From IMG/VR virus record IMGVR_UViG_2690316153_000005: a stretch of DNA of 16,076 bases. One strand, 5' to 3'. Below, one piece after another: positions 12,997 through 16,076 of the stretch (the first letter of the stretch is position 1; each line of letters opens with the position of its first letter). A program made the translations under genes and the position numbers. Source of the DNA: a virus. Lineage: Duplodnaviria; Heunggongvirae; Uroviricota; Caudoviricetes. The notes under the pieces were generated by a model. That model was not told the DNA's origin, ran no database searches, and saw only the letters and a list, made by a program, of their open reading frames with translations.

Positions 12997-13137
12997 ATGA
13001 TTAATCAAATCCATATTGCCCTTGAACGTAAGGGATCGGGTAATTTTTCGGCATGGGTTATTGAAGCCTGCAGGAGAAGGCTGGCAACAGATGCAAAGCA
13101 CCTGCGCCCGGCCAGCATGAAAAATAACGAGAAATGA
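12997..13137 (+). CDS. Small putative DNA-binding protein (46 aa) resembling a small ORF I recall near the lambda right end; possibly ribbon-helix-helix / DUF3950 (YlcI-like)
   Basis: Hand translation of the plus strand: MINQIHIALERKGSGNFSAWVIEACRRRLATDAKHLRPASMKNNEK. It resembles the recalled lambda right-end ORF segment ...MIEQINIALEQKGSGNFSAWVIEACRRRL.... A short out-of-frame ORF (12965..13000, MSSKNKASQTR) precedes it. Below the ORF track size cutoff. Confidence 0.5.
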   Translation: MINQIHIALERKGSGNFSAWVIEACRRRLATDAKHLRPASMKNNEK

Positions 13138-13269: not shown

Positions 13270-13596
13270 TCAGGGTGCTGAAGGACTAAAGATAAATGTT
13301 TTCTTCACGCCTTTACGCGGCTTGTCCTTCTCAAATCGCCATTTTGCCATCGCCTTTACAACCTGCTCATCAAACAGATGGTGCGGCTCTGAACGGATAA
13401 ACTCAATTCGGGTGACAGTACCATCAGCACCAATATCAAACTTCACATCAACCCGTCCCTTTATATAATTTGCCGCGGCATAGGCCGGATATTGTGGTAA
13501 TGCCTTAACCAACTGTCGAGGCATATCTGTTTTATGTTGCGTACAGCCCATAACCAAAGAAGACAACAAAATAATTAACGGAAGATTTCTTTTCAT
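13270..13596 (-). CDS. Predicted outer-membrane lipoprotein consisting essentially of a TonB C-terminal-domain-like fold (108 aa from the second ATG; 113 aa from the ATG at 13611)
   Basis: N-terminus MKRNLPLIILLSSLVMGC has a basic n-region, hydrophobic core and lipobox-like VMGC with +2 Thr. Residues 40-105 (PAYAAANYIKGRVDVKFDIGADGTVTRIEFIRSEPHHLFDEQVVKAMAKWRFEKDKPRKGVKKTFIF) align by eye with the recalled E. coli TonB C-terminal domain ([59 protein letters not shown]). Flanked by low-GC DNA. Confidence 0.7.
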   Translation of the reverse strand: MKRNLPLIILLSSLVMGCTQHKTDMPRQLVKALPQYPAYAAANYIKGRVDVKFDIGADGTVTRIEFIRSEPHHLFDEQVVKAMAKWRFEKDKPRKGVKKTFIFSPSAP

Positions 13597-13616
13597 TTTT
13601 ATTCCCGGCATAGATA

Positions 13617-13633: not shown

Positions 13634-13940
13634 AACAATGCAGCCCTGTCGGTCATCAATCCTCTGCTTAATGGCAATGACAATTATCCGACTTAAATCA
13701 CAAATCAGACACATGACATAACAGAGTTTGCGAGGTAACACATCGTCCGGTTTCTTCCACCATCGCACCGGACCAGCGACCATGAGGGGACAACGCCGCG
13801 CTCCGTTTACGCGGTAAACCCCGGTGTGTATCGTTTTTGATTATCCCCGCACACTCTCGCAGAGGAGTCTCCCTGTCGGGCTGCGGTCTCTGTTAATGCA
13901 GGAATACGGCGACAATACCGCGCATGGATAATAAGGTCGC

Positions 13941-14165
13941 TCAACACACTGGCTGTAATTCAGCGGATACCATTCGGCATTTATCAGTATTCATCACACA
14001 CTCAACGGTGAATTCTTCATGCGTGGCATTCACTTCATATGTTCGTGAATAACATTCAGTGCATTTACCTCTGAACACCTCTTCAAGCAGAACACGGCCA
14101 TGTTGCAAAACACGGAACGGAATTGTTCCCTGAAAAGGTTTTACCGTTACCTGCAATTTCTTCAT
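13941..14165 (-). CDS. Cys-rich small protein (74 aa), function unknown, translationally coupled to Rz
   Basis: ORF track protein MKKLQVTVKPFQGTIPFRVLQHGRVLLEEVFRGKCTECYSRTYEVNATHEEFTVECVMNTDKCRMVSAELQPVC; contains a CxxC motif and three further Cys. Its ATG overlaps the Rz stop as ATGA (14165..14162). I do not recognise the family. Confidence 0.5.
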   Translation of the reverse strand: MKKLQVTVKPFQGTIPFRVLQHGRVLLEEVFRGKCTECYSRTYEVNATHEEFTVECVMNTDKCRMVSAELQPVC

Positions 14166-14656
14166 ACATCCTCCGGATAATAAAAAGCCTGCTTAGTACA
14201 CTGAGTGCGGATATAGTCCTGTGCCCCTTCCAGTTGCTTCTGCATCGTCATCAGCCGCTCTCTGAGGGTGAAATAATCCCGTGTAACGGTGTCTGCCAGT
14301 TGGGGGCCGGTTGCATTATCCACGCGGGCGGTGCCGGTGGCTTCACGCACGGGACCTGGACAGGTGGCGTTGATCCGCAGGCTGCGGTGACCAGCGGCAA
14401 CGTCAGCGCGAAGAGTTTCATTTTCAGCTCTCGCATCGGCTAATTCCCTCGAGTATCTGGCATCAAGTGCAGCAACATCACGCTGGCGCTGCTGCATATC
14501 AGTAATGGTTGCATTTGCCAGCTCCAGCTCACTGACTTTTTTATCGCGCTGCTCTTTGTAGGTTATGGCGTTATCACGGTAATGATTCAGCCCCAGACTA
14601 AGCGCACCACAGGCCACCAGCAGGGCAATGATGACCACGCACAGTACGCGGTTCAT
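14162..14656 (-). CDS. Rz: Spanin inner-membrane subunit Rz (i-spanin), 164 aa
   Basis: MNRVLCVVIIALLVACGALSLGLNHYRDNAITYKEQRDKKVSELELANATITDMQQRQRDVAALDARYSRELADARAENETLRADVAAGHRSLRINATC... resembles recalled lambda Rz: N-terminal TM segment, NHYRDNAITYK motif, coiled-coil periplasmic domain. Confidence 0.88.
   Translation of the reverse strand: MNRVLCVVIIALLVACGALSLGLNHYRDNAITYKEQRDKKVSELELANATITDMQQRQRDVAALDARYSRELADARAENETLRADVAAGHRSLRINATCPGPVREATGTARVDNATGPQLADTVTRDYFTLRERLMTMQKQLEGAQDYIRTQCTKQAFYYPEDV
14251..14436 (-). CDS. Rz1: Spanin outer-membrane lipoprotein subunit Rz1 (o-spanin), embedded in the +1 frame of Rz
   Basis: MRELKMKLFALTLPLVTAACGSTPPVQVPCVKPPAPPAWIMQPAPNWQTPLHGIISPSESG has lipobox LVTAAC, a proline-rich body and conserved PPAWIMQP / GIISPSE motifs as in lambda Rz1; entirely nested in Rz. 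Confidence 0.85.
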   Translation of the reverse strand: MRELKMKLFALTLPLVTAACGSTPPVQVPCVKPPAPPAWIMQPAPNWQTPLHGIISPSESG

Positions 14657-14657
14657 T

Positions 14658-14795
14658 TCACCACCAGCGTATCTGACCGATGAAATAACCGGAGGCCATA
14701 ATCACAAACACCAGCCAGATAAGAATGAACTTCCAGGTGGATAATTTTTCAGCCATCACTCGAATCTCCCGAATCAGTTTGCTAAAATCAAACAC
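14658..14795 (-). CDS. Unannotated small single-pass membrane peptide (45 aa from GTG at 14795; 32 aa from ATG at 14756) immediately upstream of Rz
   Basis: Hand translation of the minus strand: (V/M)FDFSKLIREIRVMAEKLSTWKFILIWLVFVIMASGYFIGQIRWW. AAGGAGA sits 4 nt upstream of the GTG and GGGAGA 8 nt upstream of the internal ATG. The TGA stop (14660..14658) is 1 nt from the Rz ATG (14656). Below the ORF track size cutoff. Confidence 0.45.
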   Translation of the reverse strand: MFDFSKLIREIRVMAEKLSTWKFILIWLVFVIMASGYFIGQIRWW

Positions 14796-14821
14796 ACTTT
14801 CTCCTTTGACTTTTCCGGAGT

Positions 14822-14866
14822 CAGGAAACACAAAACCCCGCTTGCAGCCAACAAATGGGGGTTTTA
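14822..14866. terminator. Stem-loop AAAACCCC-(17 nt)-GGGGTTTT followed by a T-rich tract; candidate intrinsic terminator or RNA structure between the endolysin and the small ORF
   Basis: Read directly: 14822..14829 aaaacccc pairs with 14848..14855 ggggtttt; it is followed on the plus strand by ttttacttttatt and on the minus strand by gtgtttcc. The loop is unusually large for a canonical terminator. Confidence 0.35.
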
Positions 14867-14954: not shown

Positions 14955-15488
14955 TTATCTGTCAATTCCCCAGCACGCCAGCGCACTCTCCTGGTCGCGA
15001 CGGGATACCTGACCGTAACAGTTATTTGAGCGAATACGGCAGTCTCTGCCACCGTCCTTAATCCACCAGCGAATCGCCTCACACGCTCCCCTGCGATCAC
15101 CTGCATTAATTCGTCTGTAAAACGTCGACGGGAAACATTTACCGGGACCAATGTTGTACGGACAGAATGACGCGATCCCCGCTTTCTGGGGTTCGGTCAG
15201 TGGCACTTTGATGTTTTTCTCCACCCATGCCAGCGCCTTATCACGTTCAATGGCGTTAACCTGGTCGCATTTCTCCTTCGACAACTTCATGCCCGGGACG
15301 ACAGGTTTACTATCCACCAGAATGGCACCGCGACAGATGGTCCAGATACCCGCGCCATCACGGTATGCCGTGGTGTGGTTACCTTCCTTTTCATCCAGAA
15401 ACTGGTCGAGGATTTCAGGCGCAGGCGCACCTGCGGCAATCAGCGCCAGAACGGCAGCCGACAGGCCGTATCTGATTTTTGCGTTCAT
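14955..15488 (-). CDS. R: SAR endolysin, T4-lysozyme-family (GH24) muramidase, phage-21 R / DLP12 RrrD type, 177 aa
   Basis: MNAKIRYGLSAAVLALIAAGAPAPEILDQFLDEKEGNHTTAYRDGAGIWTICRG... has an N-terminal weakly hydrophobic Gly/Ala-rich signal-anchor-release-like segment and an E-x8-D-x5-T catalytic triad pattern (EGNHTTAYRDGAGIWT). It follows a pinholin-type holin. Confidence 0.85.
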   Translation of the reverse strand: MNAKIRYGLSAAVLALIAAGAPAPEILDQFLDEKEGNHTTAYRDGAGIWTICRGAILVDSKPVVPGMKLSKEKCDQVNAIERDKALAWVEKNIKVPLTEPQKAGIASFCPYNIGPGKCFPSTFYRRINAGDRRGACEAIRWWIKDGGRDCRIRSNNCYGQVSRRDQESALACWGIDR

Positions 15489-15538: not shown

Positions 15539-15886
15539 TCAGGCCAGCGGTGGAGTCTTCAGAGAACCAGTAATTATTCCCGGTAGTTTTCCTCTGTAGG
15601 TTATCAACACATCCTGCGCCTCTAAAATGATGGGCCGCTTTTCCGGCAACGGACCATCCCCTTCACATAACCCGGCAGCAACATCCATGAAAAACTGCTT
15701 CGCCTGCTTTTTCGCCTCAGCTTCGTAAAACTCCAGCGTGGCACCTTCAGTACGGTCAAGACTAATCGCCACATATGGCAACAACAGTGACGGATACCCA
15801 CCAATTTCCAGTGCCACAGTAACAGTAATCTTATCCGGGTAATTATTTATCCCTTTAACAACCAGTTCGTATTTTTTATTCATCAC
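15539..15886 (-). CDS. Conserved prophage protein of unknown function between holin and endolysin (115 aa), probably DUF1327 / YdfR-like
   Basis: MMNKKYELVVKGINNYPDKITVTVALEIGGYPSLLLPYVAISLDRTEGATLEFYEAEAKKQAKQFF...; its ATG overlaps the holin stop region (holin ends 15888). The YdfR-like assignment rests on position between ess and rrr homologues and on recollection, not on an alignment. Confidence 0.55.
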   Translation of the reverse strand: MMNKKYELVVKGINNYPDKITVTVALEIGGYPSLLLPYVAISLDRTEGATLEFYEAEAKKQAKQFFMDVAAGLCEGDGPLPEKRPIILEAQDVLITYRGKLPGIITGSLKTPPLA

Positions 15887-15887
15887 T

Positions 15888-16076
15888 TTACTCTCCCCGC
15901 GCCGCCTTACGCCGGTCCTCTCTGATTTTGAAATACAGGTTAGTCAGATACGTCAGCAGGCCAAACAGCAGACTCCCCAGCACACCTATCGCCACCCACT
16001 GGGACGGAGAGACTTTGTCCAGCAGCTGCAGTAACCAGTATCCCGTCCCCACCGCTGACGTGGTGTATGACACACC
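15888..16076 (-). CDS. S: Class II holin / pinholin of the phage 21 S21 type, N-terminus truncated by the window end
   Basis: ...[60 protein letters not shown] closely resembles recalled S21 (…[51 protein letters not shown]). The ORF continues to the window edge. Confidence 0.85.

Follow-up and report, generated by a model that had tools for sequence, protein, structure and literature searches.

A small optional gene overlapping the end of Rz in lambdoid prophages, probably late accessory cargo

We analyzed a 74-amino-acid open reading frame (ORF) that directly follows the Rz spanin gene in a stretch of 16,076 nucleotides (nt) of Caudoviricetes DNA (IMG/VR record IMGVR_UViG_2690316153_000005), which we call the window. 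The right-hand end of the window comes from a lambdoid prophage of E. coli and contains its late region, which is read on the minus strand. On that strand the ORF occupies positions 13941..14165, begins with ATG, and encodes a protein of 8.6 kDa. Its start codon (14165-14163) shares bases with the TGA stop codon of Rz (14164-14162), forming the ATGA overlap (14162..14165) that an earlier note on this DNA, made from the sequence without database searches, had described without naming the strand. A GGAGG Shine-Dalgarno sequence (14170..14174; cctcc on the plus strand) precedes the ATG with a spacing of 4 nt and lies within the last codons of Rz. The cysteine-rich character reported for the product could likewise be read from the translation, which has cysteines at positions 35, 38, 56, 63, and 74, comprising one CxxC motif and three others. 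Rz, the inner-membrane spanin (i-spanin) gene, occupies 14162..14656 on the minus strand (PF03245, E = 9.9e-48), with the outer-membrane spanin (o-spanin) gene Rz1 embedded in it on the same strand (14251..14436; PF06085, E = 1.7e-20). Also on the minus strand, and ahead of Rz in the direction of reading, the gene listing gives a class II holin (15888..16073), a YdfR/DUF1327 gene between holin and endolysin (15539..15886), and a lysozyme (14955..15488), followed by a small membrane ORF of 57 amino acids with one hydrophobic segment (14658..14831; phrog_6632, E = 1.4e-29). Beyond the ORF come a conserved, apparently non-coding element of about 180 nt (13746..13925, minus strand), a 113-amino-acid TonB_C lipoprotein gene (13270..13611, minus strand; PF03544, E = 2.7e-15; lipobox LVMGC), and a small plus-strand gene of the DUF3950 / YlcI-YnfO family (12997..13137) between the lysis region and cos/Nu1, past which lie the terminase genes Nu1 and A.

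On comparative evidence the 74-codon ORF is a real protein-coding gene and not a chance frame, because diverged allele pairs have a ratio of nonsynonymous to synonymous substitution rates (dN/dS, Nei-Gojobori) of 0.21-0.36, the reading frame is kept in homologues of 60-77% amino acid identity, and all 80 copies retrieved from IMG/VR are intact. Third-position changes are also in excess, and one frameshifted copy is known, from O55:H7 DEC5E. By tblastn the ORF is found in 26 phage records. Nineteen of these are at least 99% identical to it and comprise Shiga toxin (Stx) phages of types Stx2c, Stx2a, and Stx1a together with a truncated H-19B record; the other seven are 72-76% identical. Annotations of the identical protein exist for Stx2a, Stx2c, and Stx1a phages as well as for E. 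coli chromosomes, and RefSeq and GenBank label it a hypothetical protein (e.g., WP_000736096.1 and relatives). This reach is what gives the uncharacterized gene its wider importance: roughly one in four complete E. coli genomes (1244 of 5426, by blastn) and many Shiga-toxin phages have it. An Rz homologue lies directly upstream in every one of the 69 IMG/VR loci with enough upstream DNA, and 67 of them have the 4-nt overlap. This post-Rz position is kept across different lysis cassettes and terminase types, with lambda-type Nu1/A beyond it in the window and HK97-type TerS/TerL plus an HNH gene in loci L001 and L005. Conservation in relatives and synteny with Rz in other prophages, two checks named in the earlier note, are both borne out by these counts.

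Alignment with the empty site of phage BP-4795 and with the L002 allele defines an apparently promoterless cargo cassette of about 272 nt (13926..14197, minus strand), which consists of a 32-nt leader containing the GGAGG, the ORF, and a 15-nt trailer. Homology to BP-4795 ends after ...ACTCAGTG in Rz and picks up again at ATGCGC. The leader recodes the C-terminus of Rz to TKQAFYYPEDV, such that Rz of the window, with 11 codons added, ends in …TQC-TKQAFYYPEDV*, compared with ...TQCLN* in BP-4795, where the conserved element directly follows the Rz stop codon and the slot is therefore empty. In the L002-type allele, an in-frame TAG in the same leader ends Rz 23 nt before the ATG of the ORF, and the start lies 23-24 nt past the Rz stop codon in alleles L002, L006, and L008. 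This indicates that the ATGA overlap is a feature of the allele and not a requirement. The proposal that the ORF is co-translated with the spanin genes is consequently sound for the layout of this allele but does not extend to all alleles. The exact borders of the cassette, together with the empty site, provide a clean basis for deletion and swap designs.

The slot between Rz and the element is used by other cargo in close relatives. In 933W-like and lambda-like phages it holds bor in the opposite orientation, in agreement with the earlier statement that the ORF is a different cargo from bor, and in Lys8385Vzw it holds a Rha-family gene. The ORF resembles these genes in occupying the same Rz-to-element (Rz-to-cos) slot, in being optional, and in being swapped between similar phages. 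The ORF is present in only 26 phage records, against 398 for the flanking element and 361 for a matching Rz region. Taken with the empty site of BP-4795, these numbers show the gene, as far as sequence comparison goes, to be optional cargo of the late operon and not a lysis component. Consensus scans, which are no proof of absence, revealed no promoter-like site upstream of the ORF on the minus strand and no credible terminator after it, the sole terminator-like hairpin being inside the ORF. Since no promoter of its own is apparent, the ORF would be transcribed in the Q-dependent late transcript with S, R, and Rz/Rz1. We infer that it is transcribed only within this pR' transcript and translated by coupling to Rz, from its own Shine-Dalgarno sequence, or by both routes.

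The downstream border of the slot is formed by the ~180-nt element. In alleles that share only ~82% identity over the ORF, the ~195 nt that come after it are 97-99% identical. Approximately 180 nt of this stretch (13746-13925) occur in the 398 phage records, the remainder being the cassette trailer. Hundreds of lambdoid phages have the element after their lysis cassette, among them lambda itself (J02459, at about 46,885-46,986), as do loci L117 (1501-1680) and L115 (1501-1663). For 15 variants, RNAalifold predicts a long-range helix formed by GUAUCGU…ACGAUAC and UAUUCCUGCA…UGUGCGGGGAUA around small hairpins, followed by two more hairpins. In a test that used the same alignment from which the structure had been derived, 96.3% of cells pair under the consensus structure, pairing falls to 34.5-57.8% when the 3' partners are slid by 1-3 columns, and both-side changes are found in 6 pairs against a shuffle mean of 1.7, with none of 500 shuffles reaching 6. 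Many one-sided changes are G-U wobbles that would be A-C mismatches on the opposite strand, which points to RNA in the sense of the late transcript. The diversity behind this comparison is low, the element being essentially restricted to Escherichia phages (6 matches in a one-genome-per-species set), and the single-sequence minimum free energy z-score is only -0.2. Homologues differ by indels of 1, 9, 12, and 17 nt, which argue against coding. For that reason we judged translation of a 46-amino-acid ORF at 13807-13947 unlikely, and we regard the 81-amino-acid coding sequence annotated as 'Rz-like spanin' (VT2phi_272, YP_009187371.1; L115 1443-1688), which overlaps the element downstream of bor, as probably an annotation artefact. 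We regard the element as a candidate for a structured RNA within the late transcript. It has no match in Rfam and may be of interest beyond this locus, as a feature of about 400 lambdoid phage records that belongs to no Rfam family.

The earlier note could not place the ORF product in a family, whereas profile searching did so clearly: residues 1-73 match positions 100-172 of the 291-position PHROGs profile phrog_2571 (E = 1.2e-28), as do all 25 aligned relatives. PHROGs labels this family as of unknown function. The profile owes its length of 291 positions to proteins of 280 amino acids on which it is modelled, such as P0047 (end-to-end match, E = 2.9e-144), and the window protein corresponds only to its central beta domain. 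A stand-alone beta domain of 70-80 amino acids is nevertheless the majority architecture in the family, and only a smaller share of the proteins have C-terminal extensions, which are variable, or an N-terminal coiled coil. An exhaustive profile search returned 45 proteins at E ≤ 1e-3, a second, indexed search returned 60 proteins from Klebsiella, Enterobacter, Yersinia, Xenorhabdus, and Salmonella, and a cluster look-up of one of the latter added Raoultella sequences, showing that the family spans Enterobacterales. In the family alignment, M1, K2, V6, F17, Q21, G33, K34, Y43, V45, and A68 are near-invariant and the C-terminal third is variable. The ORF, already catalogued as a hypothetical protein and as phrog_2571, belongs to a kind of feature that is already known in lambdoid phages, the variable cargo of the late region. 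In the literature collection that was searched, no paper dealt with the protein or with the downstream element.

Several other relationships were considered and set aside. The ORF is not a truncated remnant of a 280-amino-acid phrog_2571 protein, given that the stand-alone form is the commonest and that the ORF has its own Shine-Dalgarno sequence and start codon and is under purifying selection. Multi-stretch matches to P0038, P0053, P0057, and P0065 were judged spurious, these being cystatin, HYR, or zinc-finger repeat proteins. Neither hhalign nor BLASTP supported homology to, or fusion with, YdfR/DUF1327 of the same lysis cassette, and an apparent likeness between YdfR and the extension of P0100 did not hold up (BLASTP E = 3.0, no Pfam match). 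Separately, the C-terminal extension of P0032 (residues 96-180) matches the extension of phrog_2091, the extended YdfR family, with an E-value of 3.5e-31. The extension is therefore an exchangeable C-terminal module common to two N-terminal domains that are not detectably homologous.

AlphaFold2, run on an alignment of 12 sequences, predicts a six-stranded beta sandwich with one short helical turn (predicted local distance difference test score [pLDDT] 87.3; predicted template modelling score [pTM] 0.72). The N-terminus, MKKLQVTVKPFQGTIPFRVLQHGR, has neither a hydrophobic core nor a lipobox, as judged by hydropathy and by reading and not by a dedicated signal-peptide predictor. Kyte-Doolittle maxima are 0.44 with a 19-residue window and 0.64 with a 15-residue window. 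In contrast, the adjoining TonB_C lipoprotein has LPLIILLSSLVMGC. The product is accordingly shown by these predictions as a soluble protein that lacks an export signal and consists of a single beta-sandwich domain, the fold being modelled with confidence. Together with the arrangement of the cassette, this gives a solid case for an optional, late-transcribed, cytoplasmic, single-domain accessory protein, and we consider it very probable that the ORF yields a real late-expressed cytoplasmic cargo protein.

These properties suggest the following explanation, which we prefer to any other although we would give it slightly less than an even chance of being right in full. The ORF would be an accessory gene of lambdoid prophages, carried on a small cassette with no promoter that is inserted where the end of Rz meets the ~180-nt element. 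Ribosomes would reach it from termination on Rz at the ATGA or would load directly at its own GGAGG. The product would be cargo outside the lysis machinery, with a cytoplasmic role at a late stage of lytic growth. It may be a small protein that is not an enzyme but binds some factor of the host or of a competitor, with counter-defence as the most plausible, if low-confidence, purpose. A role as a binder is suggested because the protein has no catalytic signature, because the C-terminal third and the extensions of the family are variable, and because its members occupy several accessory slots beside anti-defence-type cargo. An optional late cargo that is neither a lysis protein nor a zinc-finger protein points more generally to accessory roles in the lytic cycle, such as counter-defence or host takeover. 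That the product is specifically a counter-defence protein or a host-factor binder is a tentative proposal, and on present evidence it is rather unlikely.

The counter-defence proposal comes from the surroundings of distant relatives, since some of these adjoin Acb2/Tad1-type sponge genes, DNA methyltransferases, and nucleoside deoxyribosyltransferase-like genes, and since an Acb2-like gene can itself occupy the post-Rz slot. In two Enterobacter loci, the family members P0034 and P0044 lie directly upstream of a gene with the Acb2/Tad1 hairpin domain (PF24729; E = 2.3e-17 and 3.1e-16), just before Nu1, and an N6_N4 DNA methyltransferase and a DUF4406 gene are close by. In the Xenorhabdus locus L128, the first base of an Acb2-like gene is the last base of Rz. 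These PF24729 genes, all in late accessory slots of Enterobacter or Xenorhabdus prophages, lie at L026 5314-5598, L025 863-1147, and L128 3699-3941. They resemble the ORF in being small late-region phage cargo, found directly downstream of family members in Enterobacter and overlapping the Rz stop codon in the post-Rz slot of the Xenorhabdus phage. They differ from it in kind, as their domain is a helical hairpin and the ORF product is predicted to be all-beta, with no likeness in sequence or fold. Pfam gave no PF24729 match in the ORF product, the domain being present only in neighbouring genes of the distant loci.

A second recurrent neighbour is the phrog_4280 protein, of 71-73 amino acids, whose gene directly follows a phrog_2571 member in L008, L021-L024, and L128 (phrog_4280 genes at L008 2746-2961, minus strand; L022 449-670; L023 353-574; L024 371-589; and L128 1736-1951). 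It has no Pfam family and shows the pattern MFV..GLK.DPDN.GWVLGW.VVR..PWHL.GVYATK…. The pairing is found in three diverged sub-families at different genomic positions, which suggests that the two genes form a module in some lineages; the window has no phrog_4280 partner gene. On this basis one might speculate that the phrog_2571 beta domains, often together with phrog_4280, are a new class of late counter-defence or host-takeover binders delivered through a dedicated promoterless post-Rz slot bordered by structured RNA, an idea that we consider improbable but worth stating.

A number of observations weigh against the preferred explanation. The ORF product has no match in Pfam or NCBIfam, no PADLOC-DB family matches it at E ≤ 1, and sequence searches of the PDB returned no relative. 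Its own neighbours in the window, the TonB_C lipoprotein, DUF3950, and terminase genes, are not anti-defence genes. Other distant family members have ParDE, GrlR-like, or Lom-like genes in their neighbourhood, which would fit accessory cargo of any kind. The argument for anti-defence is one of guilt by association and comes from a handful of loci in which distant relatives occur. Finally, the recurrent tight adjacency to spanin genes could still mean a role related to lysis.

That last point leads to the alternative that fares best among those we considered, although we think it unlikely: the product may be a lysis accessory or regulator that modulates the timing of holin, endolysin, or spanin, for example by binding the cytoplasmic tail of the holin. 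The gene directly follows the i-spanin gene in phages of E. coli, Salmonella, Klebsiella, and E. fergusonii, and the adjacency persists when the spanin family (PF03245 versus DUF2514) and the holin and endolysin are different ones; P0062 and P0100 of Klebsiella come after a DUF2514-type spanin, and P0047 of E. fergusonii comes after Rz and a DUF4406 gene. Other members (P0049, P0032, and P0048) are situated between the Q antiterminator and the holin, just upstream of the latter, and the allele in the window is laid out for translational coupling to Rz. On the other hand, the gene is not an obligatory companion of the lysis cassette, as the carrier counts and the empty slot of BP-4795 given above demonstrate, and some relatives lie far from lysis genes, such as P0040 in an early region with ParDE and P0051 near an Ail/Lom gene. 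Spanins act in the periplasm and membranes, whereas the ORF product appears soluble, with no transmembrane segment or lipobox that could anchor it, and profile searches of Pfam, PHROGs, and NCBIfam revealed no likeness to known antiholins or lysis regulators. Because the gene is optional and its slot can be empty or hold bor or a Rha-family gene, the ORF is probably not part of the lysis machinery. Of the earlier idea of a lysis-linked protein, co-transcription and a coupling layout with the spanin genes remain, but the obligatory presence and membrane anchor of a core lysis component were not found.

A somewhat less probable alternative is a moron expressed from the prophage for lysogenic conversion or superinfection exclusion, like bor in lambda. 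Lambda bor possesses a promoter of its own and is active in lysogens, and its product is an exported lipoprotein. The ORF sits in the same slot as bor in lambda-like and 933W-like phages, and its wider family occupies classical moron positions, namely the Q-holin interval, the vicinity of lom, and the immunity region. It differs from bor in being co-oriented with the late genes, overlapping Rz, apparently lacking a promoter, and encoding a soluble product with no envelope-targeting signal. There is also no room for a promoter, as the 32-nt leader lies within Rz, and the consensus scans detected neither the promoter nor the terminator of a strict moron on the strand of the ORF. By comparison, the adjoining TonB_C lipoprotein gene does have its own TG-extended promoter-like site (13656-13629).

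We consider it quite improbable that the product is a virion-associated or carbohydrate-binding beta sandwich, for example an immunoglobulin (Ig)- or fibronectin type III (FN3)-like protein that decorates the virion or binds debris and is related to domains of the tail-tip protein J. The only argument for this is the resemblance of the predicted fold to other sandwiches, the nearest being those of carbohydrate-binding modules (CBMs), Ig-like domains, and the hemocyanin C-terminus. Foldseek comparison of the model gave E-values above 0.05 in BFVD and above 0.29 in the PDB. Alignment of the family with lambda J by hhalign gave a probability of 0.2% (E = 0.3), providing no support for homology to J, and PF24801 produced only sub-threshold matches in 3 of 25 members (best E = 0.02; gathering score 27 bits). 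In contrast to known Ig/FN3-like and CBM sandwiches (lambda J FNIII-A, CBM35/36), the ORF product is free-standing and predicted to be cytoplasmic, with no detectable homology to them. Furthermore, the ORF accompanies Rz in phages whose head and terminase modules are unrelated, which argues against a role in the virion.

The earlier note had suggested that this cysteine-containing product might be zinc-ribbon-like or a periplasmic disulfide protein. This allele does contain five cysteines with one CxxC, C35 and C56 are invariant in the close Escherichia/Salmonella clade, and C35, C56, C63, and C74 co-occur in an E. coli sub-clade, where they may form a clade-specific metal site. C35 and C56 are, however, the only cysteines invariant in the close clade. 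Most alleles have L, S, or G at the position of C38. One of them is the commonest allele (55 of the 80 IMG/VR copies), which reads GKCTQLHS and so has CTQL in place of CxxC; other alleles have CTQS, CTKL, or CTEG. C63 and C74 are confined to the one E. coli sub-clade and are missing from Salmonella-type and short alleles, and the wider family alignment contains no conserved cysteine, which contradicts the idea at the level of the family. Given that the cysteines are not conserved, that no export signal is visible, that the single CxxC has no second CxxC/CxxH knuckle, and that the model is a sandwich in place of the two knuckle beta-hairpins of a ribbon, we reject both the zinc-ribbon and the periplasmic-disulfide readings as very improbable.

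The genes flanking the ORF have features of their own. The 57-amino-acid ORF ahead of Rz stops 1 nt before the Rz start codon and is annotated as hypothetical in relatives. The DUF3950 gene keeps its position in many relatives and stands beside an HNH endonuclease gene in HK97-type packaging modules. The TonB_C lipoprotein is barely more than a TonB C-terminal domain and could serve as a periplasmic TonB-box decoy against TonB-dependent phages or colicins. Its family, phrog_1267, is labelled 'Rz-like spanin' in PHROGs, which looks like a mis-annotation.
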